Assembly (NCBI GenBank): GCA_964016885.1
Contig: OZ024752.1
Location: 27,156,001-27,220,000, forward strand
Direction of reading: 5' to 3'
Length of the DNA: 64,000 nt
Source of the DNA: Eledone cirrhosa
Lineage: Eukaryota
In this document: one piece after another, positions 10,557 through 64,000 of the stretch
Numbering within the stretch: the first letter of the stretch is position 1
Layout of the letters: each line of letters starts with the position of its first letter
Translations under genes and position numbers: made by a program
Notes under the pieces: model-generated
Databases searched by the model: none
Told to the model about the DNA's origin: nothing
What the model saw: the letters and a program-made list of their open reading frames with translations, nothing else

Positions 10557-10587
<31 letters not shown>

Positions 10588-12672: not shown

Positions 12673-12867
<195 letters not shown>

Positions 12868-13809: not shown

Positions 13810-13810
13810 G

Positions 13811-13848
<38 letters not shown>

Positions 13849-13859
<11 letters not shown>

Positions 13860-14734: not shown

Positions 14735-14789
14735 TATATATATATGTGTGTGTGTGTGTATATATTTATTAAAATGACAGATTAAAGTT

Positions 14790-15275: not shown

Positions 15276-15467
15276 TTTTTTTTCATTATATATATATATA
15301 TAAATTGTCCTTTGTAACTATTTGGTATGTTTATTTTACATATATACGTCATTTTACATTTAATTTAATATAAATGCTCGTATTTACTACCTGAAATCTT
15401 AGAGCATATTTCCACAGGTGATATGGCGCATGATTCTGATACTCTCAGACATGACTTCCTTAATCTA

Positions 15468-15603
<136 letters not shown>

Positions 15604-16149: not shown

Positions 16150-16288
16150 CCGTATTTCCCGGCGTCGAAGACGCTACTTTTTTCCTAACATAAGTCTAAA
16201 AAATCTACCATGCGTCCTGGAAGCCGAAGGTTGTCAAATTTAGGGTGCGTCCTCGAGGACGAAGCGTCTTCGGCGCCGGGAAATACGG
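16150..16288. mobile_element. Tc1/mariner-pogo type MITE (139 bp)
   Basis: TIRs CCGTATTTCCCGGCGTCGAAGACGC / GCGTCTTCGGCGCCGGGAAATACGG flanked by TA target duplication. Confidence 0.8.
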
Positions 16289-17879: not shown

Positions 17880-18215
17880 CCACCGTCATCGCTCCCATCT
17901 CTGTCGCCCTCCCCATCTCTCTGTATAGTGAGCAAATGGCGTCCCACGTGCTGGCGGCACCACAGCCCCGGCGGACAGAATGGAGAAGGCGTTTCCCCGG
18001 ATGATGGTAAGGGAGATGCCCTGGAAGAGCCATTCCATCTCTCTCGGGAGGCTCACACCTGCGGCGGGCCAACTCAGAGCCTATGGTAGTGAGTAGGGAG
18101 GTAGCCCTAGGTCCAAGGACACCAGAAGTCTCCACTGCCAAGGGTACCACCGCAAGACTGTTGGAGAGCGACCGGTACTTGGAGAGTTTTGCCTCCTCAG
18201 TCCGAAGTGCAGCAG
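17880..18215 (-). mobile_element. 3' fragment of a CRE-like non-LTR retrotransposon (restriction-like endonuclease end)
   Basis: KYRSLSNSLAVVPLAVETSGVLGPRATSLLTTIGSEL...(frameshift)WLFQGISLTIIRGNAFSIL resembles the CRE-clade C-terminus. Confidence 0.65.
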
Positions 18216-19270: not shown

Positions 19271-19346
19271 AAACAGTTTGAACCAGATAAGTGAAGTCAT
19301 ATTTCAGTAAAAAGCTACGCATTTTTAAAAGATACAAAAATTACAA

Positions 19347-19625
19347 TCTGGCAGGAAGGTATACGTTGCTGACGATAGCTAATAAGCTTGAAACTAGTAC
19401 ATCGTTCCTTTGTCAGTGTTGAACAAATGAGTAACGATGGTTGCTAGACACTGTACGGCTTAATTCAGAATGTTTGTTTACAAACACACCGAGCATTATA
19501 ATAAATGTTCGGTGAATCCATACGTACATTTATATATACGTGTGCATGTATGTATATATATATATATATATATATATACATACTACTGTATGTCTGTATA
19601 CATATATGTATGTACGTATACATAC
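19347..19625 (+). mobile_element. Diverged retrozyme family 1 partial copy, HHR at 19363-19405
   Basis: acgttg CTGACGA tagctaataagctt GAAA ctag TA catcgt followed by unit body. Confidence 0.7.
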
Positions 19626-28627: not shown

Positions 28628-29282
28628 TATAGATAGGTAAATATACACGGGTGTGTATGATTGTGTATAGAAGATTATATTAATAAGAGGAATTCCAACT
28701 TTGTCTGATTTACTCGTTTTATTTACAATCCTTTAAAATATATATAATGGTATTATAATGAAATAGTATGATAGAATATTAAATTCTAAGTGTTAATTGA
28801 ACAAGTACTTTCATGCTTTCGCAATCTTCAGGTTCATGATATGTGGTGACAGTCGAGTTTGCAATTTTCAACTGTAATGAGATGGGTAAATTTCCTACCT
28901 TTTATACATTTTATACAGAGAAAAGTGGCTCCAGAATGCAAAGCCCTGTAAACTGTATTTCGACCAATCAGTGTGTAGTTTCACTGAATTACTACAGCTG
29001 ATTGGTTTAAGCGTCACGGCTGGTTGAGCATGCTAACGACCAATAGTCATATCCAACGTATCAATTGTTTTGCTTTTTTGAAATGATGAAAATAGCATTT
29101 TCTATTAATCATCACCATCAACATCACTTTTATTATTATTATTATTGTTGTTGTTGTTGTTGTTAGTGGTCGTGGTCATAGTGGTAGTAGAAGTAATACC
29201 CCTAGGCGTTATTATTGTTCATTTAGCTTGGGTTTGAATTTATCAATAAAATTCTTTTCTTTGATTTTTCTCTTGATTTCAT

Positions 29283-30452
29283 TTGGGCTGTGTTCCCGTT
29301 TACGCGAACTCTGTAATGGGATACTTAGAACAACAACTCTACCAAGAAATAGAGGAAAAATATAGTACTGACTTTAGAAAGTACATTGAAAAATCTTGGA
29401 AGAGATACCTTGACGACTGTTTCATCATCTGGACAGAATCTCTAGATACTCTGGATGAGTTCAATATCCTCCTGAATAACCTACACCCATCTCTCCAATT
29501 CACAAAAGAGATGAGTAGGACCAAATTACCATTCCTAGATATAATGATAATCAAAAACGACACCACCATTACCACGGATATATATTATAAACACACAGAC
29601 ACCCATCAATATCTGAATTTTAAGTCGTGCCATCCACCTCATACAAAACGCAACATCCCATACTGCCTAGCCAGAAGAATTTGTACCATTGTAGAAGATA
29701 CGAATACCAGGTACAAACGCCTAACAGAACTAAGAGAATTTTTGCTCAAACAAAAATACCCATCTCTACTTATAGAAAATGTCATACAGCGGGCTATAAA
29801 AATACCTATACAACAACTTAGAACAACCCAAAGAAGAAGAAACCAAGAACTGGTCATACCATTTATAATGACACACAACCCATGTCACCAGAATATCTTC
29901 AACACTGCCAAAGCAAACCTACCGATCATTGCTCAAAGTAATGAATTAAAAGGCTTAATCACAGATCGATCTTTGACTCTTAGTAAAAGACAGCCAAAAA
30001 ATTTGAAGCAATTGCTAACAAAAGCAAAGTTTGACCTTAACAACAAAGACCAATCATTCACTGTATCTAAATGCAATGATAATCGATGCGGCACATGTCA
30101 ATCCATACACGCCGGTCAATATATGAAAACAAAAACTGGAAAAATATTCACAAATGCAAATATGAACTGCAAAAGCAGAAATCTAATTTACTGCATTAAA
30201 TGCCCGAATTGTGAAGAACTATATGTCGGTCAAACTGGAAATGCACTATCGGAACGTGCACGGGTACACCGTCAACAAATCAGAGACCCAAATGTCCGTC
30301 AGATACCCCTAAGCGGCCACCTGGCAACATGTGGTCAGGGAATATTTATAATATTCCCATTCTACAAATTACACAGCCCAAATGAAATCAAGAGAAAAAT
30401 CAAAGAAAAGAATTTTATTGATAAATTCAAACCCAAGCTAAATGAACAATAA
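29283..30452 (+). CDS. PLE reverse transcriptase C-terminal half plus GIY-YIG endonuclease (5'-truncated, open)
   Basis: WKRYLDDCF, LPFLDI, DIYYKxTD, CNDNRCGTC linker, LIYCIKC..LYVGQT, RARVH; first few codons come from the inverted arm. Confidence 0.88.
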   Translation: MGCVPVYANSVMGYLEQQLYQEIEEKYSTDFRKYIEKSWKRYLDDCFIIWTESLDTLDEFNILLNNLHPSLQFTKEMSRTKLPFLDIMIIKNDTTITTDIYYKHTDTHQYLNFKSCHPPHTKRNIPYCLARRICTIVEDTNTRYKRLTELREFLLKQKYPSLLIENVIQRAIKIPIQQLRTTQRRRNQELVIPFIMTHNPCHQNIFNTAKANLPIIAQSNELKGLITDRSLTLSKRQPKNLKQLLTKAKFDLNNKDQSFTVSKCNDNRCGTCQSIHAGQYMKTKTGKIFTNANMNCKSRNLIYCIKCPNCEELYVGQTGNALSERARVHRQQIRDPNVRQIPLSGHLATCGQGIFIIFPFYKLHSPNEIKRKIKEKNFIDKFKPKLNEQ

Positions 30453-30827
30453 TAACGCCTAGGGGTATTACTTCTACTACCACTATGACCACGACCACTA
30501 ACAACAACAACAACAACAATAATAATAATAATAAAAGTGATGTTGATGGTGATGATTAATAGAAAATGCTATTTTCATCATTTCAAAAAAGCAAAACAAT
30601 TGATACGTTGGATATGACTATTGGTCGTTAGCATGCTCAACCAGCCGTGACGCTTAAACCAATCAGCTGTAGTAATTCAGTGAAACTACACACTGATTGG
30701 TCGAAATACTGTTTACAGGGCTTTGCATTCTGGAGCCACTTTTCTCTGTATAAAATGTATAAAAGGTAGGAAATTTACCCATCTCATTACAGTTGAAAAT
30801 TGCAAACTCGACTGTCACCACATATCA

Positions 30828-30866
30828 TGAACCTGAAGATTGCGAAAGCATGAAAGTACTTGTTCA
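30828..30866 (+). ncRNA. Minimal type I HHR in PLE pLTR
   Basis: tgaac CTGAAGA t tgc-gaaa-gca t GAAA gtac TT gttca. Confidence 0.8.
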
Positions 30867-31009
30867 ATTAACACTTAGAATTTAATATTCTATCATACTA
30901 TTTCATTATAATACCATTATATATATTTTAAAGGATTGTAAATAAAACGAGTAAATCAGACAAAGTTGGAATTCCTCTTATTAATATATATATATATATA
31001 TACATATAT

Positions 31010-31447
31010 ATACATACAGGCACACATACATATATGCACGTATCAGTTTAGCGGACGCTTATTATAACGCCGCTTTGTTCATTTGTAAACAAACTGAACA
31101 GCCTGAATGTTTATGCCGTACGGTGTTAAGGCAACCACGTCACCTTTTTGTTCAACACTGACACAGGAACGATGTACTAGTTTCAAGCTTGTTAGCTATC
31201 ATCAGCACCGTACACCCATCTGCCAGATAGTTGAACGTTCGAAAGTATATTCTCTCCTTATGAAAATTAACGGCTGAGCAGCCTAATTTGCATATCGAGT
31301 GAGCTAAGTCGGTCAGGCATACCGAAAACGATAAGTTGAAATAAAATGAAAACGAAATTTCATTTCTCACTCTTAGTACGGCACTTACTTAAATGTAAGT
31401 ATGTGTTTATACGTACATACATATATGTATACAGACGTACAGTAGCA

Positions 31448-31510
<63 letters not shown>

Positions 31511-31832
31511 CATATATATACATACAGGTACACATACATATATGCACGTATCAGTTTAGCTGACGCTTTTTATAACGCCGCTTTGTTCGTTTGTAAACAA
31601 ACTGAACAGCCTGAATTTTTATGCCGTACGGTGTTAAGGCAACCACGTCACCTTTTTGTTCAACACTGACACAGGAACGATGTACTAGTTTCAAGCTTGT
31701 TAGCTATCATCAGCACCGTATACCCATCTGCCAGATAGTTGAACGTTCGAAAGTATATACTTTCCTTATGAAAATTAAGTAAGTGCCGTACTAAGAGTGA
31801 AAAATGAAATTTCGTTTTCATTTTATTTCAAC
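31010..31832 (-). mobile_element. Retrozyme family 1, ~1.5 units with short inverted segment (31778-31832)
   Basis: Minus-strand HHRs at 31169-31211 and 31677-31719. Confidence 0.82.
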
Positions 31833-32428: not shown

Positions 32429-32448
32429 TATATATATATATATATAGG

Positions 32449-32645
32449 TACGTTATTCCGGGTTGAATCGGAGGTAACCACAGTAAGTAAGGTATTCAAT
32501 ACATTGCAGAGTATAACAGTTTTAATATATAGATGAGATTATACAGGACTAGAACAGTTTAATTCTTTAGAAATCATCAGGAATCTCTGATTCCTGATGA
32601 TTTCTAAAGAATGAAACAGTTCTAGTCCTGTAGAATCTCATCTAT
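32449..32645. mobile_element. Fold-back PLE family D, back-to-back HHR pair
   Basis: + HHR at 32589-32637 (gattc CTGATGA tttc-taaa-gaat GAAA cag-ttctagtc-ctg TA gaatc); minus copy 32536-32586 has GAAA changed to TAAA. Confidence 0.75.
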
Positions 32646-32654
32646 ATATATATA

Positions 32655-33580
32655 GTACTAAGAGTGATAAATGAAATTTCGTTTCATTCTATTCCATTTA
32701 TCGTTTTCGGTGCGCCTGGCCGTCTGAACTTACTCGATATGCAAATTGGGCTGCTCAGCCGTTCATTTTCATAAGGAAAGTATATATTTTCGGACGTTCA
32801 ACCATCTGGCAGAAAGGTATACGGTGCTGACGATAGCTAATAAGCTTGAAACTAGTACATCGTTCCTGTGTCAGTGTTGAACAAAAAGGTGACGTGGTTG
32901 CCTAAACACTATACGGCGTAATTCAGGCTGTTTGTTTGTTTACAAACGAACAAACTGAGCATTATAATAAATGTTCGGTAAACTGATACGTGCATATATA
33001 TATGTGTGCCTGTATGTATATATATACATGCTACTGTACGTCTGTATACATATATGTATGTACGTATACATACATACTTACATTTAAGTAAGTGCCGTAC
33101 TAAGAGTGATAAATGAAATTTCGTTTCATTCTATTCCATTTATCGTTTACGGTGCGCCTGCCCGACTGAACTCACTCGACATGCAAATTGGGCTGCTCAG
33201 CCGTTCATTTTCATAAGGAAAGTATATACTTTCGGACGTTCAACCATCTGGCAGAAAGGTATACGGTGCTGACGATAGCTAATAAACTTGAAACTAGTAC
33301 ATCGTTCCTGTGTCAGTGTTGAACAAAAAGGTGACGTGGTTGCCTAAACACTGTACGGCGTAATTCAGGCTAACTGTTTGTTTACAAACGAACAAACCGA
33401 GCATTATAATAAATGTTCGGTAAACTGATACGTGCATATATATATGTGTGCCTGTATGTATATATATACATGCTACTGTACGTCTGTATACATATATGTA
33501 TGTACGTATACATACATACTTTCATTTAAGTAAGTGCCGTACTAAGAGTGAGAAATGAAATTTCGTTTCATTCTATTCCA

Positions 33581-33797: not shown

Positions 33798-33888
<91 letters not shown>

Positions 33889-34271
33889 GAAAGTAAAACA
33901 AAGAAGCCTTCAATACATCAAAAGTCATTATTAGCCAACAATGTTTCGTCCTATTAAGGACTCATCAGGGCAATTAAAACAACAAGAAGTATTATTATTA
34001 CCGCTTACTTATAATAATAATAACATAATATCACATAGGTGTATCTGAACCCATCCATAAGTTAACCCACGGGACTCGTAATAGGGAATATAATACCTCT
34101 AGGAAACAAGTCGAACCCTCTGAGCGCTCACTCATTGGTGATAATTTTGCTAGATCTAATTCTAATAATGTTGCTTCTACTGATCCTATTATTGGCCCTA
34201 ATCCTTTTGATGGGATTCCAGACGACAGCAGATCTACTAGACGTAGAAACAGTAAGAGACTTAATGGAATT

Positions 34272-35165
34272 TTGGCTGATTCTAATAATGCGGTTTTAAC
34301 TAATCCTTGTAGTAACCCTAGTCTTAATAGTGGGATATTAGATAATGGTAGAGTCGGTAAGGATAAAAATAGAAGGAGACTAAATACTTATTTTAACCCG
34401 CCATATAATCAGGAAGTATTAACTAATATCCCTAGGTCTTTCTTTTCTATCTTAGAGAAAAATTTCCCCCCTTCTCATAAATACCATAGTATTTTTAATA
34501 AAAATGTTATTAAACTTTCATTCTCTACCACCCCTAATATTAGTTCTCATTTAGCTAGCACTAACAATAGGAAAATTAGGGATGGATTCTCGTCTCTACA
34601 TACTACTAGTCTGAACAGATCTGGAAATGCCTTACCACCAGAACAGACCTTACCTAATAGCAATCATACGTGTAATGCATCACTACTTCAGCCAACCAAT
34701 AGCACCCGGAAGTGTAACTGTAGAGTGAGTGCTAACTGCCCTTTAAACGGTAACTGCCTCTCTAAGAACATCGTCTATGCTTGCGTAGTTATAACTAATT
34801 CCTCTAATAGAACTTATATAGGCTCCACATCTAACACTTTTAAGACTAGGTTTAATTCTCATATCTCTAATTTCAAACATGTTAAGTTTAAGAATTCTAC
34901 TTCTTTAGCACACTATATCTGGGATCTTAAGGGGGCTAATATACCATATAGCCTTAATTGGCGTTTAGTAGCACGCTCTAATAACCTTTCTACACATACT
35001 AAATTTTGTAATCTCTGTATCCTCGAGACACACTCTATAATTTTCTCTAGCGAATCCTTACTTAATAGAAAGTCTGAGATATTCTCTTCTTGCCCCCACG
35101 CTATTTCTAATTCTTACTTTTATTATAAACCTAAAGTTTCTAGTAGTATAAATTGTATCCATTAG
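34272..35165 (+). CDS. PLE GIY-YIG endonuclease region (truncated)
   Basis: YFNPPY, CNCR..CPLNGNCL, NIVY...TYIG, FKTRFNSH, CNLCILE. Confidence 0.8.
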   Translation: MADSNNAVLTNPCSNPSLNSGILDNGRVGKDKNRRRLNTYFNPPYNQEVLTNIPRSFFSILEKNFPPSHKYHSIFNKNVIKLSFSTTPNISSHLASTNNRKIRDGFSSLHTTSLNRSGNALPPEQTLPNSNHTCNASLLQPTNSTRKCNCRVSANCPLNGNCLSKNIVYACVVITNSSNRTYIGSTSNTFKTRFNSHISNFKHVKFKNSTSLAHYIWDLKGANIPYSLNWRLVARSNNLSTHTKFCNLCILETHSIIFSSESLLNRKSEIFSSCPHAISNSYFYYKPKVSSSINCIH

Positions 35166-36513
35166 CTGATATATTCCATTACTTATTTTTTAGTTTAGGT
35201 TCTTTTTGTTTACCACCATTATTATCATCATTATTATCATTGGTTTTTGACAACTCTTTATTCTAGCTCTCATAATCTTTTGGCTACTATACCCTATCTA
35301 TCTTCTTACGCATTACATTTTCACTATTAACACCTTATGAGTATATATCTGATGATATATTTTACATTATTTTATTTTATTTCATTTTATTTTATTTTAC
35401 TTTATTTGGATTCTTCTTTGGATATTTTAAATATTTTTAATATTAATTTATCAAATAGGGTTTTCGGGTCATTTACCGGGGTTGTTTCCTAAGTTTTTAC
35501 TTAAGTGCATGTGAGACCTAAGTATATACTTTTGTTTTTGTTTTTTAATTTCCGGTTGATTCTATTTATTTATTTATTTATTAATACTACTGTGCATTCT
35601 ATTTACTGTTTGGCCCTTACTCACTCATCCACATATATGTTTGTTTACCAACCTTGTAATTATCAGTAATTATATATTATATTATGTTAATTATTTTATA
35701 TTGTATTTGTTATTGTACTATCGATCCTTATTACTTACCGTTGATTATATGTACCATTATGATATGTTAAATTTTATATATTATGTAAGATGTTTATATT
35801 TTTGTACCATCATAATTTTGGGTATTGTACAATTTATATTTTTTTCTCACCTACTATATGAATTGATTTGTTGACTTGCATGCCATTATATATTATATAT
35901 TATATATGTTATTATATTATTATTATAGTATTATTGTGACATCTATATTGTTTGTGTAAATTAACCGGAGATTATCTATTATATTATATTATATAGTATA
36001 TAATTGTATAGTTTATTATATATTATATGTGCTACTTATAATCATATCATATTATTACCTCATGCATATTAGATATACGGATTATTATTATTATTATTAT
36101 TATTATTATTTTTATTCCTATCATGCTTATTTATATTTAAACTCTTAATAAGGTTTAATTTGTGCTGTTAAAGATGGATATGTGTATTGATGTATGTGTA
36201 TATGTGCGTACGTGTGTATATATGTATATTGTACCTTTTAATTTTTATTGTAATTTTAATATTGTTACAAGTATATTATATTATATTATATAGTATTATA
36301 TATAATTCCCGCTCTATATAACCACCTTTTTTTTGCTCTAGGTTTTTTTTTGCTTTGGACTATATTTGTAATATGGTTCTAAATGTTATACACCTCCTTA
36401 GTGATTTTTATTACATATTTTCACCCATAATCTTGCAATACTTTAGTGTATGTACACTCCATATTCTTCGGAGTTTTCGGCTTGTATTGGCCGATAATAC
36501 TTCTTGTTATTTT

Positions 36514-36559
36514 AATTGCCCTGATGAGTCCTTAATAGGACGAAACATTGTTGGCTAAT
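36514..36559 (+). ncRNA. Minimal type I HHR
   Basis: attgcc CTGATGA gtcct-taat-aggac GAAA cattg TT ggctaat. Confidence 0.82.
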
Positions 36560-36719
36560 AAAGACTTTTGATGTATTGAAGGCTTCTTTGTTTTACTTTC
36601 ATAATTCTTCGGCTCTGTTTAATTACATTGAGCTATACCATTTACTGTCATTTCTATAATACTAAGAGGGTGTTTAACTCCAACACGCTCCAGTATTTTA
36701 ATCCTATATATATATATAT

Positions 36720-36794
<75 letters not shown>

Positions 36795-36797
<3 letters not shown>

Positions 36798-37379
36798 TTA
36801 ATATAGATGAGATTCTACAGGACTAGAACTATTTCATTCTTTAGAAATCATCAGGAATCTGGGTATCAAAAAATAAGTATGGTATTTAGGGTATGGTATA
36901 TAAGTAGGAGAGGGTGGGGAGTGGGATCGGTGTAGGTCATTGGTTGATAGAAAAGGGAATTCATTAAAGACTAATTCTACAAACCTATAGTTTATTTTTA
37001 TTTTTAGAGAAACAAAGGCAGAAAGAATTCTATAAACAGGTTCAGGATTGGGTGCCGCTCCTTATTATTAAGTTTCTCTTAAGCTAACAGGTGTCTATAA
37101 GATCAGTGGGGGTCAGTCATGGTTGATAGATTTAAAGGAAGGGGAGATTCTTTAAAAGCTAAATTCTTTAAGGTTCTACTAAATGACAAAGGTTTAGAGA
37201 ATTCTGTAGACAAATTCAAAATATTGAGTGCATATCATACAATTATCTTCAAATTTCTCTTAACTATTCAACTATATGCTAAAAATCAACAGACACATTC
37301 ACTAACACACTCACTCACACACTCGCGCGCACCCATAAACACACACACATACACATATACACATATATACACGCACACA

Positions 37380-37380
<1 letters not shown>
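36795..37380 (-). mobile_element. PLE family D pLTR, inverted arm
   Basis: Reverse complement of ~39940-40535. Confidence 0.75.
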
Positions 37381-37469
<89 letters not shown>

Positions 37470-37508
37470 CACACACACATACATACACACATACACACAT
37501 ACACACAA

Positions 37509-37560
<52 letters not shown>

Positions 37561-37608
37561 GCACATATATACACACACACATACACACACATACACACAT
37601 ATATATAT

Positions 37609-37696
<88 letters not shown>

Positions 37697-37698
<2 letters not shown>

Positions 37699-39842
37699 AA
37701 TGAAAAATAACAGGTAGACATCATAAAAAGGTAATTTATTCCGTGTGCTTACAAATGTTTCCACGGTGGTACTACAGCCTAGTTATGCTATGTGCAAATT
37801 TACAAGAATTTGCAGAACTCAAATATCCAATACTGTGACCACTGTATCCTCAGAGCAGAATGGTAAAATGTACAATGTAAATACCCTTAAGTGGGGTTGT
37901 TGTGGAAGATAGAGTAGGAAAGGAAGAGAGAAAAAAAAGTAGGGGAGAGGGAGAGAGAGAGAAAGATATGCAGGGGTTGGAGAAGTAGCAGAGAGTGGTT
38001 TGTAGATATCTTAATCAAAATGTTGTGGTAGGGGTTTTATTATACTGGTTACTTTTGGAGAGATGCGTTGATAGTTAAGGTCGGAATTATTTATTGCCCC
38101 AGAGGGCAGGTTCATAGATGTGGAGAGGGAGGTAGGCCAAAGGCGAGAGAGAGAGAGTGTAATGGATGTAGAGAGAGAGGTAGAGAGGGGACAGACGAAG
38201 TTTATGTGGTGAGTGAACTTTGGGTTTGTAGTAGTAATCTGTGAATTGCACTGAGTTACCATTTATAGTGATAAGCAGTGTATTGTCTTGTAGTGTTGGT
38301 GGAAGAGAGGGTGGTTAGCGAGAAAGCGATGTTATAGTTACGGGTTCGAATGTTAAGTTATTTTATAGTGAGAGAATTTAGCTTTTAGTTTGTGGTTGCA
38401 GTATAATGATCGTTCAATTCTATCGTTAAGTAGTTTGTTTTGGGATTTTAATATGTAAAAGAGTTCAAGGTTACATAACCTGCAGTATTTCAATCCACTC
38501 CGATATGCACTTGCGCTGGAAAGTATATCCCATTTTAAGGTGAACTGTTGGTTGCGTTCACGGAGTTGCCAGGTCTTGTTGGCGAGCGTGCTCACAAAAC
38601 GGTGATTAGGATGTTTGATTGAGAATCGATGACGGTACCAGCGAGATTTAAACGAGGTGGTAGTAGATCCGATATAATACCATTTCTGGTCGTTCGATTC
38701 AACCGTGCATTGGTAAACAATGTTGGACTTTAGGCATTCATTCTTCAATGAACATCTTTCAGGTAGATGGCAGTTACATTCTTTGTGTGGGTAGCGGGTA
38801 TACCATGGATAGGTTGTGATAGCGGTACAGGTGGATTGTGTAATACCCGTCTCCCATTTAGTGGTTGGGAGGCATAATATTACGTTCTGCCCATCTGTTA
38901 CTAAAATGTTTTGTTTTGTAGAGTTGTTTAATTGCCTTAAGTTAAGTTTTTTTTATGTATGCTTCAAGGTTTGGTTCTGTGGAGTATGATAGTCTAATAG
39001 TTTTAGAGTTCAGAATTTTGCTGTATTTATAGGAACTAGGGAAATGTTTGTTGATTAACTTAAAGAATGAAAGAGATATTGTTGTACTATTCGAGGCATT
39101 AAAAATAGGATTGTACCAGATATACTTTCTACAACGTGATTTATTTAGTGGTGATTTTCTATTATTAGTATGTCTGGTAGTACTGTCTGTGTGCGCTTGT
39201 ATTTTAGTCTCCCGGTTACATATTCCTTGATTTCGTGTAGAGCTATGTGTGTTATGGAAATTCCTATCAATGTGGGTATGGAGTGAGTATGGGCATACCA
39301 ACGGGTCTTAAAGTTGTTGGAGGTCATGCCGATGTAAGATTTTTGCAATCATCGGTGCCTGAGATGACATCGCATTTGTATACGATATCATTTGTGAGGC
39401 ATTTGTTTTCAAGTGGGCATGCTTCCTTATTTAGGCAATTACACAGAGCCCCAGTCCGGGGATTGGGTTCGGAGGTGGTTGGCTTATTGGATTTTTTAGA
39501 ATTCTGGTTGGCTATATTCCTAGCTAGGTTAGGTGTGGTGGAGTAGGAGAGTCTTGTTGTGTTCTTATTAAAGATGGTGTGGTACCTATGTTGTATGGGG
39601 AAGTGTAATTTCAGCAAAGTGAAGAAAATCCTAGCTATCGGTGTAGAGACATCTCTATTGAAGGGAGGGTTGTACCAGCTAATCTGCTTATGCCTATTCC
39701 TCCTCTGCAATCTTGCGGTGGTTTCTAGGTATGTTATCTTTTCTTTAAATCCGCTGCGGGCGAGGGCGTCATTGTAGTAGGAGGCAGATGCGTTAAAAAG
39801 GAGAGGCCAGATATTCTAATAGAGACGCTTTTTACTAGGTTT
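37697..39842 (-). mobile_element. Decayed PLE with two tandem GIY-YIG segments
   Basis: ORF pieces 39324-39710 (WYNPPF..CNC..CPL..IVY), 39145-39348 (SYIGMT), 38942-39301 (WYNP), 38353-38748 (IVY..YYIG..CRLC); HHR at 37746-37857. Confidence 0.78.
37746..37857 (-). ncRNA. Type I HHR with ~90-nt stem II
   Basis: Minus strand tgct CTGAGGA tacagtggt...accaccgtg GAAA catttg TA agca. Confidence 0.65.
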
Positions 39843-39848
39843 TATATA

Positions 39849-40697
<849 letters not shown>

Positions 40698-41052: not shown

Positions 41053-41797
41053 GGATACTTAGTAAAATCGAATCTCTGGCGGTTTGCAAGAAAATTCGGG
41101 CTACTATATGAAATGAATTATCAAAGCACTCGATAAGGTATATATATATATATAACAGGACTCGTGCACATGGACTGAACAGAGTCTGATTTACCGCCTT
41201 GGGTCCTGTTTCCCTCATGGATTCAACTCCTCTCCCAAATTTCTTTAATACTCCGTCCGTTATCACACACGCGCTTGTACATTCGCCCCTAGATTCCTAT
41301 GGCTCTCTTGTGGTCAGAAACATATTCTTTTACAGCTAATACAGACCAACATAATATACATGAATGGACCTGTTATTTTTATCTAACGACATTTTTTTAG
41401 ATTCCACCTCGCCCGTCCCTTCTATCTATCTTATTTCTCATTCTTTCTCCCGATGAAGAACTAGCGTCCGAAACGTTAAGCCCCCCTTCCTGCTATTTCA
41501 AGCGTTAACCCAATATATTCCTTCCATATAGTGTACCGATTGTGTTAATTCTGTTTACATTTTAAATATATGTTTATATATATATAACTTTAATCTGTTA
41601 TATATATATATATATATATATAAACGGAAAAAATGAAACGAAATTTCATTTCTCACTCTTAGTACGGCTGTTACTTAAATATAAGTATATATACGTACAT
41701 ACATATAAGTATACAGACGTACAGTAGTATGTATATATATATATACATACATGCACACATATATATATGTACGTATACATACTTATATGTGTATATA

Positions 41798-45160: not shown

Positions 45161-45768
45161 GTCAGGTCACCATTTGGTGCTACTGGTAATATGTATCCCA
45201 GTACAACGTGTCTCATGGTCGGGTCGTTGGCGACTAAACTGGCAACCCCACCAAGGTTTCTTGGTGGGGAGGGTGACTTTGGACATCCTGCAGGACTAAA
45301 AACAAAACCTGTCAAAGGGCAAAAGAGCTCTTAAGAATCAATGGCCATCCAAAATCACCGGGAGAGATGACCCCTTATCCTTTGTCAAGGCAGAATTCTA
45401 GGAGAAGGAAAACTCTGATATAACACCTGCAACTCTGATGGTATCCAATGATGTTGACTTGTTCTTCTTTTTGGTAAATATCATCTTGGTTAAGAGAGTG
45501 GGACTGGCTTTGTGCAGTGCCTTTGCTCATTATAAAAGCTTCACGGCACAGGCATTGCTTTATATCTGGAGATCTCTCTGCACTTGTCGTCACATGGTAC
45601 CATGGGCCTAGCACTATGTATCAATAATTGTCACAAGTGCAGTGTTTGTACCAGAGTTTTCAAGTCGCTGGCTGGACTAAAAGTCACACTCATTCAGCGC
45701 ATCGGTAGGAGTTCTCCTACATGGATATAAAGTAGTGGCCGTACTCGAAAACGAGTTGACAGCCACCA
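45161..45768 (+). mobile_element. Non-autonomous bipartite RTE derivative (copy 2)
   Basis: Colinear with 42037-42642 end to end; (ATGT)n flanks. Confidence 0.65.
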
Positions 45769-45926
45769 TGTATGTATGTATGTATGTATGGTTATGTCGG
45801 GTCACTCTAGGGTGCTACAGGTAACAGGTAACCCATCACAACCTGTCGCAGTGTCGCTTCGTCGGCGACTAAACCGACAACCCCACCAAGTTTACTTGAT
45901 GAGGAGGAGGGAGGAGAAGGATGACG

Positions 45927-46077
45927 AGAAGAAGAAGAAGAAGAAGAAGAAGAAGAAGAAGAAGAAGAAGAAGAAGAAGAAGAAGAAGAAGAAGAAGAAG
46001 AAGAAGAAGAAGAAGAAGAAGAAGAAGAAGAAGAAGAAGAAGAAGAAGAAGAAGAAGAAGAAGAAGAAGAAGAAGAA
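45927..46077. repeat. (AAG)n microsatellite, left border of the R4/Dong array
   Basis: Direct reading. Confidence 0.95.
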
Positions 46078-47661
46078 ATGCGCCAAAGCAACGTTCACCA
46101 GAGGAAAGCTGCTGAAGAGTTCAGACATTAATCTTGATCGGGGGAACGTGATAAGAGAACTTGAACGAGAAAAAACTTACAAATATCTAGGTGTTTGTGA
46201 AGGAGACGGAATCAAGCACTCGACAATGAGGCAAAGGATAAGGAAGGAATGTTACCGCAGAGTAAGAGCAATCTTAAGAACGGAATTGAATGCAAGGAAT
46301 AGGATCGATGCCATAAACACGTTTGCCATACCAGTAGTAACCTACAGTTACAATGTCATCAACTGGTAAAGCACAGAGATCCGTAGGCTCGATACAAAAA
46401 TTCGAAAATTCTTAACCATGCACAGAATGCATCACCCTAAGGCAGATATAGATAGAATATATCTCCCTAGGAAAGAAGGAGGACGTGGGTTAAACCAGTT
46501 AGACATTGCGTTGAAAAATGCAACAATTGGATTATCTACATATCTAAGGGAATCACATGATTGGATGATCAAACTCGTTTTGAAACACGAAAGCACCAAA
46601 AGATCATATTCCATTACAAAAGATGCACAAAGATACAGTAATGGACTACATATTTCAGAAGTCCCATTTACTGCTGAAATGGATAACACAGAAAAAGCAA
46701 AGCAGGTAAAAGTAACTGCAAAGAAAGAACTGCTACAGAAACTGGCTAAGAAATGGCAAGAAAAGCCTCTGTATGGAAAATACCCAGAGCGAGCTAACAA
46801 TCCTGATGTTGACAAAACTTTAACCCATCAGTGGTTGGCATCCTCTGGACTGAAATCGGAGACTGAAGGACTGATTATATCAGCACAAGATCAGTGTCTG
46901 CCAACAAAAAATTACCAAGCCAACATAATAAAAAATGGATGCAGCCCATTATGCCGTGTATGCAAAAAACAACCAGAGACCATTGACCATATAATTTCAA
47001 TGTGCAGTCCTATAGCTCCAACCGAATACCTAAACAGGCATGACAGAGCTGCACAATACATACATTGGATGATGTGTAAGCATTTTGACCTGCCCCATCA
47101 AAAGAATTGGTGGGAGCATCAACCACCTCCCATACTTGAAAAAGATCACATCTCAATCTTGTGGAACTTTAGCATCCAAACTGACTGAAAAATAGATGCA
47201 AATAGACCTGATATAATATTGAAGGACTTTAAAAAGAGGGTATGCCTGCTAATTGATATGTCTGTTCCAATAGACAAGCATGTATCTATAAAAACATTTG
47301 AAAAATTGAGCAAGTATAAGGACCTGGAGATAGAAATTGGAAAAATGTGGAAATTGAGAACTAAAACAATACCAGTGGTTGTAGGCGCTCTGGGAATGAT
47401 ACCTAAGGGGTCTAATGATTACTTATCGCAAATCCCAGGAAACCCGCGTATAGGAGAAATACAAAAGATAGTACTAATGGGAACTGCCCATATACTAAGG
47501 AAGATTCTGTCAATATAAGTAGATCACAAGTCTAAACACTAAAGATGCATGTGTGAGTATGTATGTTCTTTCTTGAACATGGCGGACCTTGTTGTCTCTT
47601 GAGGTCACTGGTTGTGACTTGGTGATAACTCGTATGAACATAAAGCAAGATAAATGCAACT

Positions 47662-47746
<85 letters not shown>
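46078..47746 (+). mobile_element. R4/Dong-like non-LTR element family A, 5'-truncated, (TAA)n tail
   Basis: YKYLG, CRVC..ETIDHI..C, RHD, NRPDII..D..K RLE motifs; in-frame stops at 46367 and 47186; ends 47518, 3' UTR, (TAA)n 47663-47746. Confidence 0.85.
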
Positions 47747-50408
47747 GACATTGGAAAGCTTGAGTCACTACTGAATGGGACACTAAAAAACATAGGCACT
47801 AAAAATAGACTGGAAATAAAGTACAAAACTAGGAGGAAAAAGCTAAATATTATCATAGAGGAACTGAAGCAACGCATTGTAGCAAAGAGTGCAAAAATCA
47901 GGCGATACGAGAACAGAGTCAGTCAGTATAGACAGAACCGCATGTTCGACAACAACCAGAAGATGTTGTTTGGACAGCTTGAAGGGAAAGAAAGAGGCAA
48001 CGACTTGATCCCTGAGGCGGAACAAACTAAAACATTCTGGAGAGGAATATGGGAGCAGGATGTTAAACATAATGACCAGGCAGAAGGAGATCAGTGAACA
48101 GGCACACCAACAAACTGATTTGAGTATCACAGTTGAAACTCTTAAGGGGCAGGCCAAAAATCTAACCAACTGGAAATCACCAGGCCCAGATGGTGTGCAG
48201 GGGTATTGGATTAAAAATATAACATCCCTCCACCCGAAACTGACAACCATGTTCAATGACTGCTTGATGTCAGGTGAGGTACCAGAGTGGTTGACAAAAG
48301 GTACCACAGTTCTGATAATGAAAGACCGAATCAAGGGTAATGGTGTTACCAACTATAGACCTATCACATGTCTGTCCGTAATGTGGAAACTGTTGACAAG
48401 CATTATGTCTGAAGAAATCTACCATCACCTCCACACAAACAACTTGTTACCGGACGAACAGAAAGGATGCCGAAAGAAGTCACGTGGTACAAAGGACCAG
48501 TTACTTATTGATAAGATGGTAATGAGGAATTGCAAGAGGAGGCACACTGGTCTTGCCATGGGATGGATAGACTACAAAAAGGCATATGACATGGTGCCTC
48601 ATTCTTGGATCACCAAAAGCCTGGAGATCTTCAAGGTGGCAGATAACATCAGACAGTTGTTGGGCAAAAGTATGAAGTCCTGGGAAACAGAGTTAACATC
48701 AACTGGAGAATCCTTGGGAAGCGTGAAGATCAAGAGCGGTATCTTCCAGGGAGATAGTCTGTCCCCTCTGTTGTTTGTCCTTGCCCTGATGCCCTTGACC
48801 ATTATGCTGCGAAAAGTGAGAGCAGGATACACGTTGGGAAGGGGAGAGCTTACCATCAATCACCTCCTCTTCATGGACGATCTTAAGCTCTTCGGGAAAA
48901 GTGAGAAGGAGTTGGATGTGCTTGTTGACACTGTCCGTATTTTCAGCAGTGATATATGTATGCAGTTTGGTATTGGTAAATGTGGAGTCATTGTGATGAA
49001 GAGGGGTAGGTTGAGCAGAAGTAACGGGATCCAGATACCAACAGGTGAGATGATAAAGGAAATTGACTCTGAGGAAGGATACAAGTATTTGGGCGTTCTG
49101 GAGGCTGATGGCATAAAGAACAAAAAAATGAAGGAATTGTTAAGAACTGAATACATTCGGAGAGTAAGGAGCGTATTGAAGTCACATCTGAACAGCAGAA
49201 ATGCCATAAGCGCAGTAAATTCCCGAGCTGTGTCTATTATTAGGTACAGTGCGGGAATTCTGAGATGGAATGTTGCTGAACAAAAAGAAATGGATAGGAA
49301 GACTAGGAAGCTATTGACTATCTACAACATGTTCCACAAGAGGAGTGATGTCGATAGACTCTACCTAAGGAGATCTGAGGGTGGAAGAGGTCTTATCAGC
49401 ATAGAGGACTGTGTTCAGATGGAGAAAAACAAACCTATACAAATACGTGACCTATAGTAAGGAGCCAATGCTCAGAGCTGTACTGAAGGAGGGGACAGTA
49501 GGCCAGGGGATATCCAAGGAGGAAATAACATCAAGGAGGAAGAGCAGCCTTAACGGAAAATCCCTTCATAGTACCTTCTTTGAGAAAACTGAATTTAGAG
49601 ATCCACAGACATGGAACTGGTTGAGAAGAGGAGACCTCAAAAAGGCTACAGAAGGAATGCTAATGGCTGCGCAGGAGCAGGCCCTCAAAACGAAGTGGTT
49701 GAAGCACCATATCTACAAGGAGGAGGCTAGCCCACTGAGCAGGATCTGTGGAGAGAGAGAGGAGACTGTGGCTCACATTGTGTCCGAGTGTAAACACCTA
49801 GCCCAGACCCACTATAAGGGCTGGAGACACGATGTGATGGGCAGGGTGATCCACTGGCACCTGTGCAAAGTAAACAATCTACCACATTCTGAGAAATGGT
49901 ATGAGCATAGGCCAGAGGCGGTGATGGAGAACAGTCAGGTGAAGGTGCTGTGGGATTTTAGGATACAGACGGACAAAAAACTGGAACACAATAGACCTGA
50001 CCTGGTGGTTGTGGACAAAGAAAAAAGATCGTGCCTGATTGTGGATGTGGCCTGCCCGTTCGACACGAGAGTGCAAGAGAAGGAGAGGGAGAAAATTAAC
50101 CGATACCAGGACCTAAAGTGGGAGGTGAAAAGGATTTGGAACTGCCATGAAGTCAAAGTGATCCCGATTGTCATAGGCGCACTGGGGACTATCTCCAAAG
50201 GTTTCCAGGGATGGTTAAAGAAAATCGGCCCCTTCACGCTTTTTGGAACGCTTCAAAAGGCATGCTTGCTTGGAACAGCAAGAACCCTCCGATACGTCCT
50301 GAATATCTGAGGCTGCAGGTAGTGGCTTGATATTCAATCCAACGGACTTTCCAGTTAACCAACATCAATGACTGAGATTCAAGGAATAATAATAATAATA
50401 ATAATAAT
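47747..50408 (+). mobile_element. R4/Dong-like family B, 5'-truncated, (TAA)n tail
   Basis: ORFs 48060-49457 (RT: KSPGPD, DYKKAYD, GIFQGDSLSP, FMDD) and 49411-50310 (zinc knuckle, NRPDLVV RLE). Confidence 0.88.
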
Positions 50409-50849
50409 CACCGCTACAGCACCATCACTACAGTAATACGGTCACATCACCGCCACCACTGCCTCGGTATCGACATCACCACCACCACTGTCTCATTATC
50501 GCTACCGCCGCCAGTCCCCCACTTCTCCCAGCTGGTTGCTGCCACCACATTATAGAATTCCTACTACTGAAAAAGAGGAAGGCATCAAAATATATAGATA
50601 GACTCAAAAGAAAAAAGAAAAAACAAACAACAAAACCAAAGCAGCACAGCAACAACAGCAAAAAACGAGAAAAACAAACAGAGAAAAACAAAAACAAAAA
50701 AAAAACAAAAAACGTAAAGAAAATAAGAATGAAGAGAGAAGCAGGCGGACGGACAGAGAAGAGGGGGGAAAAACTAAAACTAAAAAAACAAAAACTAAGT
50801 CAGACATTCGAACACTACATTACAATGAAACTTATGCTTATTCATTTTT

Positions 50850-53800
50850 GGGGCCCTTTCTGCCTGTGTGTTTGTTTGTTTATGTGTGTTCGTATACAGC
50901 GTGGTGATAATGCCACACAAGGGCCAAGTGGAACGGCGAATCCACAGATGGCTATGTAACCATACATTCGCCAATCCTCGATAAGAGTGTTTAAATATCG
51001 AACATAAACAGTTCGAATAACGGTGAAATGGAGACTAGAACGTCATGTGACAGACTCTCACCCAACAGGTGCCCCCTGGCTCAGCAGCAGGAACCTGACT
51101 GTCAACCAAATACTGCTGATGTTGGAGGAAGAAGAAGAAGGAAAGGGGCCAGAACCAACTGGACGAAATAATTGAATAGAACTGTTATGCAATGTTACCT
51201 GAAAAGTAACCCCAAGGAGAGGGGCTACAGGACAAGGATGCATAACATCTGGAACGAGATTGGTTTATTTAAATTAGATGAACAAAAATTGGCCGGGCAG
51301 GCTCGGGTAATAAGAACTAATGGGTGGATAAGCGAGCTGGAACTGGAGGAACTGAGCAGAGAGAATGGCTTGGAGATGGCGGGTGTAGTATGCCAGACAA
51401 GCGAGCCAGTGGGAAATGAAGGTGAAGAGGTCCTGAGAACGGAGGGACCACCCGAAGCAGACAATGATCTGAATACTGAGATAAATAATACCTGGAACAG
51501 AGATACGGCCACTGAGGAGATGAATGCTGACGGGCTAGGACAAGATTCGGTTGACATCCTAAATTTAGTGGTAGATGAATTGAACAATGATAGTGGGAGA
51601 CCTATGAACCTAAGATATGTAGACAGGAAAAAGTTAAAAGAAACAACAGCTAAGGTAAACAAAGTCATCCCATACCTTGAGGCGAGGAGCCTTCACCAGT
51701 GCAACAATATACTCAAAGCAACAGCAAATACGGTGAGGAAACTACTTGGTATAAAAGCGAGAGGAAACAACAGACAAGAAAGAGCAGAGCCGTGGTGGAA
51801 GAAGCGACTGAGTGGTCAAATCGGGGAAATGAGAAATGACATAGGAAAGCTTGAGTCACTACTGAATGGGACACTAAAAAACATAGGCACTAAAAATAGA
51901 CTGGAAATAAAGTACAAAACTAGGAGGAAAAAGCTAAATATTATCATAGAGGAACTGAAGCAACGCATTGTAGCAAAGAGTGCAAAAATCAGGCGATACG
52001 AGAACAGAGTCAGTCAGTATAAACAGAACCGCATGTTCGACAACAACCAGAAGATGCTGTTTGGACAGCTTGAGGGGAAAGAAAGAGGCAACGACTTGAT
52101 CCCTGGGGCGGAGCAAACTAAATCGTTCTGGAGAGGAATATGGGAGCAGGATGTTAGACATAATGTCCAGGCAGGGTGGATTGAGACAGTACAGAGGGAG
52201 ATCGGTGGGCAGGCACAACAACAAACTTATTTGAGTATCACAGTTGAAACTCTTAAGGGGCAGGCCAAAAAACTAACCAACTGGAAATCACCAGGCCCAG
52301 ATGGTGTGCAGGGGTATTGGATTAAACATTTAACATCCCTCCACCCGAAGCTGACGGCCATGTTCAATGACTGCTTGGTGTCGGGTGAGGTGCCAGAGTG
52401 GTTGACAAAAGGTACCACAGTTCTGGTAATGAAGGTCCGAATCAAGGGTAATGATGTTACCAAATATAGACCTATCACATGTCTGTCCGTAATGTGGAAA
52501 CTGTTGACGAGCATTATGTCTGAAGAAATCTACCATCACCTCCACACAAACAACTTGTTACCGGACGAACAGAAAGGATGCCGAAAGAAGTCACGTGGTA
52601 CAAAGGGCCAGTTACTTATTGATAAGATGGTAATGGGGAATTGCAGGAGGAGACACACTGATCTTGCCATGGGATGGATAGACTACAGAAAGGCATTTGA
52701 CATGGTGCCTCATTCTTGGGTCACCAAAAGCCTGGAGATCTTCAGGGTGGCAGATAACATCAGACAGTTGTTGGGCAAAAGTATGAAGTCCTGGGAGACA
52801 GAGTTGACATCAACTGGAGTATCCTTGGGAAGCGTGAAGATCAAGAGAGGTATCTTCCAGGGAGATAGCCTGTCCCCTCTGTTGTTTGTCCTTGCCCTGA
52901 TGCCCTTGACCATTATGCTGCGAAAGGTGAGAGCAGGATACAAGTTGGGAAAGGGAGGGCTTACCATCAATCACCTCCTCTTCATGGACGATCTTAAGCT
53001 CTTCGGGAAAAGTGAGAAGGAGTTGGATGTGCTTGTTGACACTGTCCGTATTTTCAGCAGTGATATATGTATGCAGTTTGGTATTAGTAAATGTGGAGTC
53101 ATTGTGATGAGGAGGGGTAGGTTGAGCAGAAGTAACGGGATCCAGATACCAACAGGTGAGATGATAAAGGAAATTGACTCTGAGGAAGGATACAAGTATT
53201 TGGGCGTTCTGGAGGCTGATGGCATAAAGAACAAAAAAATGAAGGAATTGTTAAGAACTGAATACATTCGGAGAGTAAGGAGCGTATTGAAGTCACATCT
53301 GAACAGCAGAAATGCCATAAGCGCAGTAAATTCCCGAGCTGTGTCTATTATTAGGTACAGTGCGGGAATTCTGAGATGGAATGTTGCTGAACAAAAAGAA
53401 ATGGATAGGAAGACTAGGAAGCTATTGACTATCTACAACATGTTCCACAAGAGGAGTGATGTCGATAGACTCTACCTAAGGAGATCTGAGGGTGGAAGAG
53501 GTCTTATCAGCATAGAGGACTGTGTTCAGATGGAGAAAAACAAACCTATACAAATACGTGACCTATAGTAAGGAGCCAATGCTCAGAGCTGTACTGAAGG
53601 AGGGGACAGTAGGCCAGGGGATATCCAAGGAGGAAATAACATCAAGGAGGAAGAGCAGCCTTAACGGAAAATCCCTTCATAGTACCTTCTTTGAGAAAAC
53701 TGAATTTAGAGATCCACAGACATGGAACTGGTTGAGAAGAGGAGACCTCAAAAAGGCTACAGAAGGAATGCTAATGGCTGCGCAGGAGCAGGCCCTCAAA

Positions 53801-54532
53801 ACGAAGTGGTTGAAGTACCATATTTACAAGGAGGAGGCTAGCCCACTGTGCAGGATCTGTGGAGAGAGTGAGGAGACTGTGGCTCACATTGTGTCCGAGT
53901 GTAAACACCTAGCCCAGACTCACTATAAGGGCTGGAGACACGATGTGATGGGCAGGGTGATCCACTGGCACCTGTGCAAAGTAAACAATTTACCACATTC
54001 TGAGAAATGGTATGAGCATAGGCCAGAGGCGGTGATGGAGAACAATCAGGTGAAGGTGCTGTGGGATTTTAGGATACAGACGGACAAAAAACAGGAACAC
54101 AATAGACCTGACCTGGTGGTTGTGGACAAAGAAAAAAGATCGTGTCTGATTGTGGATGTGGCATGCCCGTTCGACACGAGAGTGCAAGAGAAGGAGAGGG
54201 AGAAAATTAACCGATACCAGGACCTAAAGTGGGAGGTGAAAAGGATTTGGAACTGCCATGAAGTCAAAGTGATCCCGATTGTCATAGGCGCACTGGGGAC
54301 TATCTCCAAAAGTTTCCAGGGATGGTTAAAGAAAATCGGCCCCTTCACGCTTTTTGGAACGCTTCAAAAGGCATGCTTGCTTGGAACAGCAAGAACCCTC
54401 CGATACGTCCTGAATATCTGAGGCTGCAGGTAGTGGCTTGATATTCATTCCAACGGACTTTCCAGTTAACCAACATCAATGACTGATATTCAAGGAATAA
54501 CAACAACAATAATAATAATAATAATAATAATA
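50850..54532 (+). mobile_element. Near full-length R4/Dong-like family B element (5' boundary uncertain)
   Basis: ATG at 51028, premature TAA at 51169, RT ORF to 53568, +1 shift to CCHC/RLE ORF ending 54421, 3' UTR and (TAA)n tail. Confidence 0.88.
51028..54421 (+). pseudogene. RT plus restriction-like endonuclease ORF of the family B element, disabled by one stop and one frameshift
   Basis: N-terminal RTNWTK*LNRTVMQCY, full RT motifs, CRICG..ETVAHIVSEC, RHD, RPD..D..K. Confidence 0.85.
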
Positions 54533-56481
<1,949 letters not shown>

Positions 56482-59161: not shown

Positions 59162-59355
59162 AAAAGGACGATGTATGTCTTCATTACGTTTATTGAATAG
59201 TGACGTGCGTTACGTTATTGATCAGCTCAAGGTTCGATCTGTATCGATCTAGCCCGACTCTCGAATAAAATATCTTCAGACCTCTGTTGTGGTAATGACA
59301 GAATGAACCTCTTAGAGCGTGATATGTATATGTATAAATAAATATATATATATAT

Positions 59356-59551
59356 AGTTTTAAAATAGATGAGATTCTACAGGACTCGAACTGTTTCATT
59401 CTTTAGAAATCATCAGGAGATTCCTGATGATTTCTAAAGAATGAAACAGTTCTAGTCCTGTAGAATCTCATCTATTTTAAAACTTTTATACTCTGCAATG
59501 TATTGAGTACCTTACTTACTGTGCTTACCTCCGATTCAACCCGGAATAACG

Positions 59552-59553
<2 letters not shown>
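59356..59553 (+). mobile_element. Fold-back PLE family D with HHR at 59418-59468
   Basis: Inverted arms centred near 59419; same tail as 40520-40602. Confidence 0.75.
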
Positions 59554-59594
<41 letters not shown>

Positions 59595-62195: not shown

Positions 62196-62776
62196 CACAG
62201 ACACCCACACACATATATATATATATAAATGTATGTGTGTGGGTGTATATCTAACTATTTATAATGATATGTCCGTTTGTGTAATCGCATGTGTCTATTT
62301 GTATAATGTATCTTTTTCGTGGGGAGGGAGTAATCTTAAATTGATTATTAAGAAAAACATAAAATATGTTGCATATTTATATGATATTATCATTTATCTT
62401 AATGATTTTGTAATTTCTTTCCTATCAAAATTTGATAAACTGAGAAAAATTGCAAATGGCTGCTGAAAACACTTCATTTAAAATCATAAACGTAGAATAA
62501 AAATAATACTATATAACTTCTTTAAAGAAAATTACAGCGATTTGAAATAAATAAGAACTGAAGTTCTCGATGAAAATAAATTTAAGTGTTAGCAAACTAG
62601 AACAGATACAGTAAGCTGTTATATTTTCCGCATATTTACATGACAAGCACAAAAACAGACACGATACATACACAAAAACATAACACACACACATGTATAT
62701 ATTGATTTATATAAAAATAAAATAACCAGGATGGTTGTGTTATCAACAAACCACGCACACACACACACACACACGC

Positions 62777-62874: not shown

Positions 62875-62979
62875 ATGTATGTATGTATGTATGTATGTAT
62901 GTATGTATGTATATATATAAAGAATATAAAGAATAAAATAACCAGGATGGTTGTCTTATCAACTTGTCTAAACAAATTA

Positions 62980-64000
62980 CATCGTTCCTGTGTCAGTGTT
63001 GAACAAAAAGGTGACGTGGTTGCCTTAACACCGTATGGCATAAATTCAGGCTGTTCAGTTTGTTTACAAACGAACAAAGCGACGTTAGCGCCGCTAAACT
63101 GATACGTGCATATATGTATGTGTACCTGTATGCATATGTATGTATATATGTATATATATATATATATATGTGCATGCTACTGTACGTCTGTATACATATA
63201 TGTATGTACGTATACATGCATACTTACATTTAAGTAAGTGCCATACTAAGAGTGAGAAATGAAATTTCGTTTTCATTTTGTTTCAATTTATCGTTTTCGG
63301 TATGCCTGACCGATTTAACTCACTCAATATGCAAATTAGGCTGCTCAGCCGTTAATTTTCATAAGGAAAGTATATACTTTCGAACGTTCAACTATCTGGC
63401 AGATGGGTAAACGGTGCTGATGATAGCTAACAAGCTTGAAACTAGTACATCGTTCCTGTGTCAGTGTTGAACAAAAAGGTGACGTGGTTGCCTTAACACC
63501 GTATGGCATAAATTCAGGCTGTTCAGTTTGTTTACAAACGAACAAAGCGACGTTGGCGCCGCTAAACTGATACGTGCATATATGTATGTGTACCTGTATG
63601 CATATGTATGTATATATGTATATATATATATATATATATGTGCATGCTACTGTACGTCTGTATACATATATGTATGTACGTATACATGCATACTTACATT
63701 TAAGTAAGTGCCATACTAAGAGTGAGAAATGAAATTTCGTTTTCATTTTGTTTCAATTTATCGTTTTCGGTATGCCTGACCGATTTAACTCACTCAATAT
63801 GCAAATTAGGCTGCTCAGCCGTTAATTTTCATAAGGAAAGTATATACTTTCGAACGTTCAACTATCTGGCAGATGGGTAAACGGTGCTGATGATAGCTAA
63901 CAAGCTTGAAACTAGTACATCGTTCCTGTGTCAGTGTTGAACAAAAAGGTGACGTGGTTGCCTTAACACCGTATGGCATAAATTCAGGCTGTTCAGTTTG
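62980..64000 (+). mobile_element. Retrozyme family 1 tandem array (more than 2 units, runs off the window)
   Basis: HHRs at 63411-63453 and 63881-63923; array starts at catcgttcc, the predicted 3' cleavage product. Confidence 0.88.

Follow-up and report, generated by a model that had tools for sequence, protein, structure and literature searches.

The described systems closest to the array considered here are the Penelope-like elements and the metazoan non-LTR retrozymes. In the available portion of PMC11167929, the Penelope enzyme nicks AT-rich DNA on both strands and extends both, and its reverse transcription starts at two internal positions, between which the genomic tail lies. The same source reports that the enzyme uses unprocessed RNA: hammerhead mutants have no effect, and no reads end at the cut. 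Of two inverted arms, one bears the tail according to accessible parts of PMC3846280 and PMC8557442, which also describe 5' junctions with microhomology and (TA)n targets. A third system, R2 with its HDV-like ribozyme, is described in the consulted part of PMC3774820 as having 5' junctions set by a ribozyme-made RNA 5' end, and this is the model that the original prediction adopted for the present array.

The window analyzed here is a 64,000-nucleotide stretch of the Eledone cirrhosa genome (contig OZ024752.1), and the focal array begins about 1 kb before its right end (Table 1). As in the metazoan non-LTR retrozymes, insofar as PMC7229834 and 10.64898/2026.07.22.740005 could be consulted, the focal family is built of tandem, non-coding units that each contain a type I hammerhead motif, and it also has in common with them a low GC content, a target duplication of more than 4 nt, thousands of copies and the presence of Penelope-like elements in the genome. 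The palindromic tetramer that caps its helix III and the U.U at the base of helix II recall the two axolotl motifs from the same partly available literature. Unlike the retrozymes in those excerpts, the focal unit is 440-510 nt long with an internal microsatellite, and it is known here from DNA alone. A map of junctions or fixed 3' ends, such as we present below, does not appear in the accessible portions of those two reports.

The array does begin at the predicted cleavage site, as had been claimed: the flank ...ctaaacaaatta runs to 62979 and catcgttcc starts at 62980, the first base after GUA. A motif scan likewise bore out the claim that the hammerhead core is missing 5' of the array, finding none upstream of 62980. 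The start can be resolved only to the interval -2 to +1, because the final TA of the flank (62978-62979) is identical to the last two bases of the unit before the cut; TRF places the array start at 62978. In total the array comprises five full units and about 310 nt of a sixth, roughly 2650 nt or 5.7 units, and it ends outside the window at unit position ~314 of that sixth unit (L031:1633). It has no coding capacity beyond microsatellite-derived frames, and no overlapping frame exceeds 185 aa. The host flank carries a direct repeat of about 35 nt (62712-62749 and 62931-62964) with microsatellites between the copies.

Table 1. Coordinates of features at the 5' end of the focal array (window positions)
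Feature	Positions	Strand	Remarks
Host flank, pre-existing	62915..62979	+	contiguous with the 3' flank sequence where the allele is empty
5' copy of target-site duplication, CAAATTA	62973..62979	+	second copy after the array 3' end outside the window, L031 ~1626-1632
Unit 1, 468 nt	62980..63447	+	begins at +1 after the predicted cut
Type I hammerhead motif	63411..63453	+	motif scan, fold of stems I/II; predicted cut after 63447
Unit 2, 470 nt	63448..63917	+	reference for all unit positions; numbering starts (+1) just 3' of the predicted GUA cut
Microsatellite hairpin, (TA)/(TATG), inside the unit	63570..63700	+	length differs among copies
Short 3' end site, unit ~255	63697..63702	+	fixed end: genomic copies stop here or at the long site; inferred start of reverse transcription
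59-nt tail reaching the long 3' end site, unit ~314	63703..63761	+	second fixed end; used by the focal array
Second hammerhead motif	63881..63923	+	motif scan, Rfam; predicted cut after 63917
Unit 3, start only	63918..64000	+	array extends 1.63 kb beyond the window

In the later units (63417-63453 and 63887-63923) the motif reads CTGATGA-TAGCT-AACA-AGCTT-GAAA-CTAGTA, with CATCGT after the predicted cut. Stem I is formed by ACGGTG and CATCGT, such that in the first motif 63411-63416 pairs with 63448-63453 around a core, CTGATGA, at 63417-63423; stem II has 4 bp and a basal U.U, and where a stable helix III would stand there is a palindromic CTAG. Stems I and II fold, and helix III, with its 2-nt loop, is unscorable by ViennaRNA as a monomer. 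Rfam at its gathering score returned no hammerhead, the sole weak match being HH9 at 18.5 bits against a gathering score of 52, and the assignment therefore rests on the core motif and the stems. (Rfam miRNA matches were dismissed, since they arise from the microsatellite.) Among loci preselected for an intact motif, the motif is retained across subfamilies and stem I varies from G.U to A-U in 26 of 188 copies. Hammerhead motifs of this kind are inefficient at cleavage in monomeric form and do better as dimers, according to the part of PMC4209133 that was available.

An empty allele of the site, which had been proposed as a check, was found. Contigs from runs X2 and X3, which represent one sample (maybe another individual or a close species), match 62915-62979 without a difference over 65 nt and then continue with 24 nt identical to the array's 3' flank; contigs of runs X5 and X6 fall short of the focal junction. 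The second copy of the 35-nt flank repeat is also present in the empty allele. Because the TA at 62978-62979 is present there as well, it is target DNA, and because the same TA also equals unit positions -2 and -1, the cDNA end may lie anywhere from -2 to +1. The target duplication measures 4-7 nt depending on the parse, three of its letters being common to the unit's own end. Considering the empty allele in one sample together with this duplication, the insertion is young, and the comparison shows that the focal array is a target-primed insertion of about 5.7 units at a formerly empty site.

Does the coincidence of the array start with the predicted cut record ribozyme activity? The original prediction took the junction for a fossil of self-cleavage, in which reverse transcriptase ran off the 5' end of a cleaved RNA, whether a partly cut multimer or a reopened circle. 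R2, whose ribozymes fix its 5' junctions, offers a precedent in the accessible portion of PMC3774820, and at the focal locus a start at +1 is compatible with the data, and the TA belongs to the target. Moreover, the motif is complete and shows the stem I variation noted above, and the alleles at unit position 108 along the array (A,G,A,A,G,A) are compatible with two rounds of reading a trimer that stops at a cut, a pattern with a one in five probability by chance. The test put forward with the prediction itself is the distribution of 5' junctions across all copies of the family.

The genome (3.0 Gb) contains 13,955 exact 35-mers that read through the predicted cut; the young variant is present in 8,300 exact copies, and exact copies of the motif overall number 8,300 to 18,030 depending on the pattern used. 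A first junction pattern gave 167 matches, of which 5 of the 30 inspected were junctions and the others point changes or indels. With a pattern open at -9 to +8, the first 100 of 349 matches, classed by hand, comprised 61 junctions, 29 small indels and 10 unrelated sequences, and 7 of these 61 junctions lay at -2, -1 or +1, compared with 10.8 expected from a flat distribution. In a control window at -122 to -108 there were 438 matches, and roughly 80 of the first 100 were junctions. Extrapolated from these two sets of 100, junction density per position is about 12 near the cut and about 23 in the control.

Three matched patterns were then applied genome-wide and all of their matches classed by hand. 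The cut class (-2 to +1) had 54 matches with 41 junctions (22 at -2, 12 at -1 and 7 at +1), the upstream class (-5 to -3) 38 matches with 32 junctions, and the downstream class (+2 to +4) 63 matches with 50 junctions, or 45 without obvious duplicates. The ratio of cut junctions to the mean of the neighbors is 1.0 (95% CI 0.67-1.47). A script check of 30 loci per class altered four rows, giving 40 or 41, 33, and 50 or 51 junctions, and left the result unaffected; the focal site has no match to the cut-class pattern and stands outside these counts. The first 100 read-through copies on C1 supplied an unselected sample of 60 surrounding regions, chosen solely for containing such a copy; it held 111 arms, from which 3 nested artefacts were removed. 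None of the 70 resolved 5' ends (of 108) fell at -2 to +1; the closest were at -4 and +2, which sets an upper limit of 4% for starts at the cut, and the remaining 38 of the 108 arms begin in or beside the microsatellite.

The reading of the focal junction as a self-cleavage fossil does not survive this comparison, the outcome being the one that the prediction itself had named as its refutation: the cut has 41 junctions, its upstream and downstream neighbors have 32 and 50, and no start among the 70 of the unselected sample falls there. There is no excess at the cut, and even the upper limit of 1.47 restricts run-offs to at most a third of such junctions. In addition, 22 of the 41 cut junctions are at -2, joined via TA, and in the focal array itself five intact predicted hammerhead motifs stand in tandem, read through uncut. 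The concentration of 5' junctions at the cleavage site that characterizes R2 in the available text of PMC3774820 is therefore absent from the focal family genome-wide: its 5' junctions bear no fixed relation to the cut. A downstream surplus of junctions (35 versus 19, p=0.04) was considered as a run-off signal and rejected, since it tracks microhomology sites at +2, +4 and +6 and also lies below the density of the control window. We consider run-off from a self-cleaved end improbable.

Because about 40 such junctions are visible at about half sensitivity, dozens of look-alike starts are expected by chance, and a 5' truncation that fell at the predicted cut by accident is the likely origin of the focal start. 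Junctions made directly to the target, the minority type to which the focal array belongs, number 3 of 18 at the cut versus 3 of 26 and 1 of 24 beside it, and these tiny counts leave room for what may be a small excess within that class. Read in this way, the focal junction says nothing about the activity of the predicted ribozyme.

The 3' ends behave very differently from the scattered 5' ends. Of 110 BLAST-defined 3' ends, 93 fall at unit positions 237-263 or 295-314, with peaks at 255 and 313-314, and (TA)n follows. Fixed 3' ends combined with 5' ends scattered along the unit indicate target-primed reverse transcription. Head-to-head inversions account for 61 of the 68 non-indel junction loci, although some (TA)n flanks may have been miscalled as inverted. 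In every one of the 55 strictly classed back-to-back pairs (20/20, 10/10 and 25/25 in the three sets), one arm ends at the short site and the other at the long site. Strict classing failed for a further 46 pairs; where one of the two ends was strict, a re-run gave 20 seemingly discordant pairs, 6 concordant or ambiguous ones and 7 that were other or cut off. The longer arm can be either one (25 versus 29 pairs), and the lengths of the two arms are uncorrelated. Fold-back self-priming can be ruled out for 11 of 54 pairs, in which neither arm contains the other.

This architecture is that of the Penelope-like elements. In the portions available of the descriptions of PAc (PMC11167929), Adineta (PMC3846280) and PMC8557442, two fixed 3' ends with a tail between them are found, as here, and the GIY-YIG members in the same three sources carry the tail on one of two inverted arms. 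The focal family likewise has an inverted, 5'-truncated arm with the tail on one side, and targets that are AT-rich or (TA)n; 5' truncation with microhomology and read-through of the hammerhead in the inserted DNA complete the resemblance to the elements in these excerpts. The focal unit differs from them in lacking an ORF, in a tail of 59 nt as opposed to 30-40, and in that both arms can be multi-unit arrays.

The tandem organization might have another origin. A single pLTR-derived unit could insert and subsequently expand by unequal crossing-over or slippage, like a satellite, as proposed in the part of 10.64898/2026.07.22.740005 that could be consulted, and both the homogeneity within arrays and the period of three in the allele pattern at unit 108 fit local duplication. 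Yet another sample lacks the array altogether at a site where the assembly has 5.7 near-identical units inside one target duplication, and both arms of inverted insertions can reach many units. Older subfamilies, moreover, do not have longer arms (median 392 versus 501 nt), and arm length is uncorrelated with identity. Growth of this kind is in our judgment very improbable as the source of the arrays, although local expansion at the DNA level may have followed insertion in single arrays. The broader claim that the repeat spreads through RNA rather than by unequal crossing-over thus stands in part: this is a retrozyme-type array inserted with a target duplication at an empty site, for which an RNA route is likely, and only the support drawn from a self-cleavage fossil falls away.

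The explanation that we favor with considerable confidence is that the focal array is a chance-truncated insertion of a high-copy non-LTR retrozyme, made by a Penelope-like enzyme that copied a multi-unit or circular RNA through its ribozyme sites. The family is likely a passenger of Penelope-like retrotransposons, copied in trans. In such a scheme a GIY-YIG endonuclease would nick AT-rich DNA, and reverse transcription would begin inside the RNA at unit ~314, as in the focal array, or at ~255, and stop at variable points. Usually both target strands would act as primers, one for each site, and the two cDNAs would join head to head. At the focal locus a single strand presumably acted as primer; the cDNA would have run from the long site through five ribozyme sites to a stop near the sixth, where its end would have joined the target directly via the 2-nt TA match. 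Its template would have been either a linear multimer left uncut or a circle that the enzyme went round repeatedly.

Among the loci examined, no autonomous partner sharing the focal unit was found; pieces of GIY-YIG ORF are common in these loci, and none is followed by the focal motif. At two loci (L158:4737-5958 and L145:5353-7915), GIY-YIG-type ORF pieces are fused to arms of the focal family, in the same sense and head to head, respectively, and these fusions may reflect template switching that involved a Penelope mRNA and the retrozyme.

The choice between the two templates has been approached through variation among units. If the ribozyme cuts transcripts to monomers that are then ligated into circles, the route proposed in the accessible part of PMC7229834, arrays would be rolling-circle cDNAs whose 5' junctions keep no trace of the cleavage. 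The Penelope-type explanation allows two templates, a ribozyme-made circle among them, and we regard this course of events as a respectable possibility that we stop short of favoring. Units are nearly identical, the median number of differences being 0 within arms, 0 between the arms of a locus and 4 between loci, and units within an array have private variants in common (L137, C8). A 1-nt loss at -2 is found in both of two adjacent units of L212, and at one locus on C1 (G000:C1:184445917-184447808; L130:4474-7052) a 7-nt loss abutting the predicted cut, seen nowhere else in the genome, destroys the hammerhead core in all five units. This single case is possibly a ligation scar on a circular template: a circle that had been trimmed, religated and copied over five rounds would be expected to leave such a trace under the model of PMC7229834.

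Against a circle, the focal array mixes two unit types at position 108, which is impossible from a single monomer circle. Of seven near-cut lesions with a sister unit in the same arm, five are unshared and two shared; small indels are about equally dense in the control window and at the cut; and homogeneous source arrays or local duplication would yield the same pattern of near-identity. A fuller version, in which arrays are one-step rolling-circle cDNAs of ribozyme-made circles, a Penelope dimer primes one short and one long site by rule, and the locus with the 7-nt loss is a fossil of trimming and ligation, strikes us as tentative and rather unlikely. Run X1, whose kind is not on record, yielded one self-closing 470-nt contig, and a tandem DNA repeat would assemble likewise; the contig was left out of the argument. 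Three other loci (C2:206876066, C3:8220960 and C4:102108905) have an identical 6-nt loss across the cut, located between two AC repeats.

The focal array is not alone in the window, where microsatellites and Penelope-like fragments abound. Six further insertions of the family (5406-8454, 8800-9110, 19343-19623, 30984-31831, 32656-33580 and 41620-41789) fall into three age classes, three of them being back-to-back, and the window is far denser in such copies than its surroundings. Three other hammerhead-bearing Penelope-like families with inverted ends occupy 28651-31013, 33870-36710, 36790-40610, 32440-32650 and 59350-59560. Here one short and one long end are combined in 4 of 5 pairs, including the pair around the ORF at 34029-35165. 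Penelope-like ORF pieces are found at 29277-30452, with a GIY-YIG match above the cut-off, and at 34029-35165 and 38353-38952, with weak GIY-YIG matches.

A second retrozyme family, with a 310-nt unit and a related hammerhead bearing a CGCG palindrome, was encountered at L135:6733-9101 and L165:5224-6417. It too is arranged back-to-back, with ends at 139 and 165-170, and in L165 it lies inside the microsatellite of a focal unit. Elsewhere in the window, a 5S rRNA-like sequence at 2641-2760 (Rfam 64.7 bits), possibly a retrocopy, runs at its 3' end into a microsatellite, and several broken ORFs of non-LTR retrotransposons, with RT-like motifs recognized by eye, lie in tandem at 45731-55946.

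The focal family is best described as a non-autonomous non-LTR retrozyme that has likely spread through RNA, and it adds to a group already linked to Penelope-like elements. In the literature searched, supplements aside, we found neither a junction map of a retrozyme family nor a count of short/long pairing; the one-sided tail has been described before. The flat junction map supports, from the side of the genome, the in vitro finding that ribozyme-cut ends are not used as templates in Penelope-type insertion. The strict pairing of short and long ends informs how the inverted Penelope structure forms, by two independent primings rather than by fold-back in at least 11 of 54 pairs, and the empty allele of a 5.7-unit array bears on whether retrozyme arrays insert whole or grow as satellites. 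The family thereby constitutes a large natural data set on the inverted Penelope structure and on the origin of the arrays.
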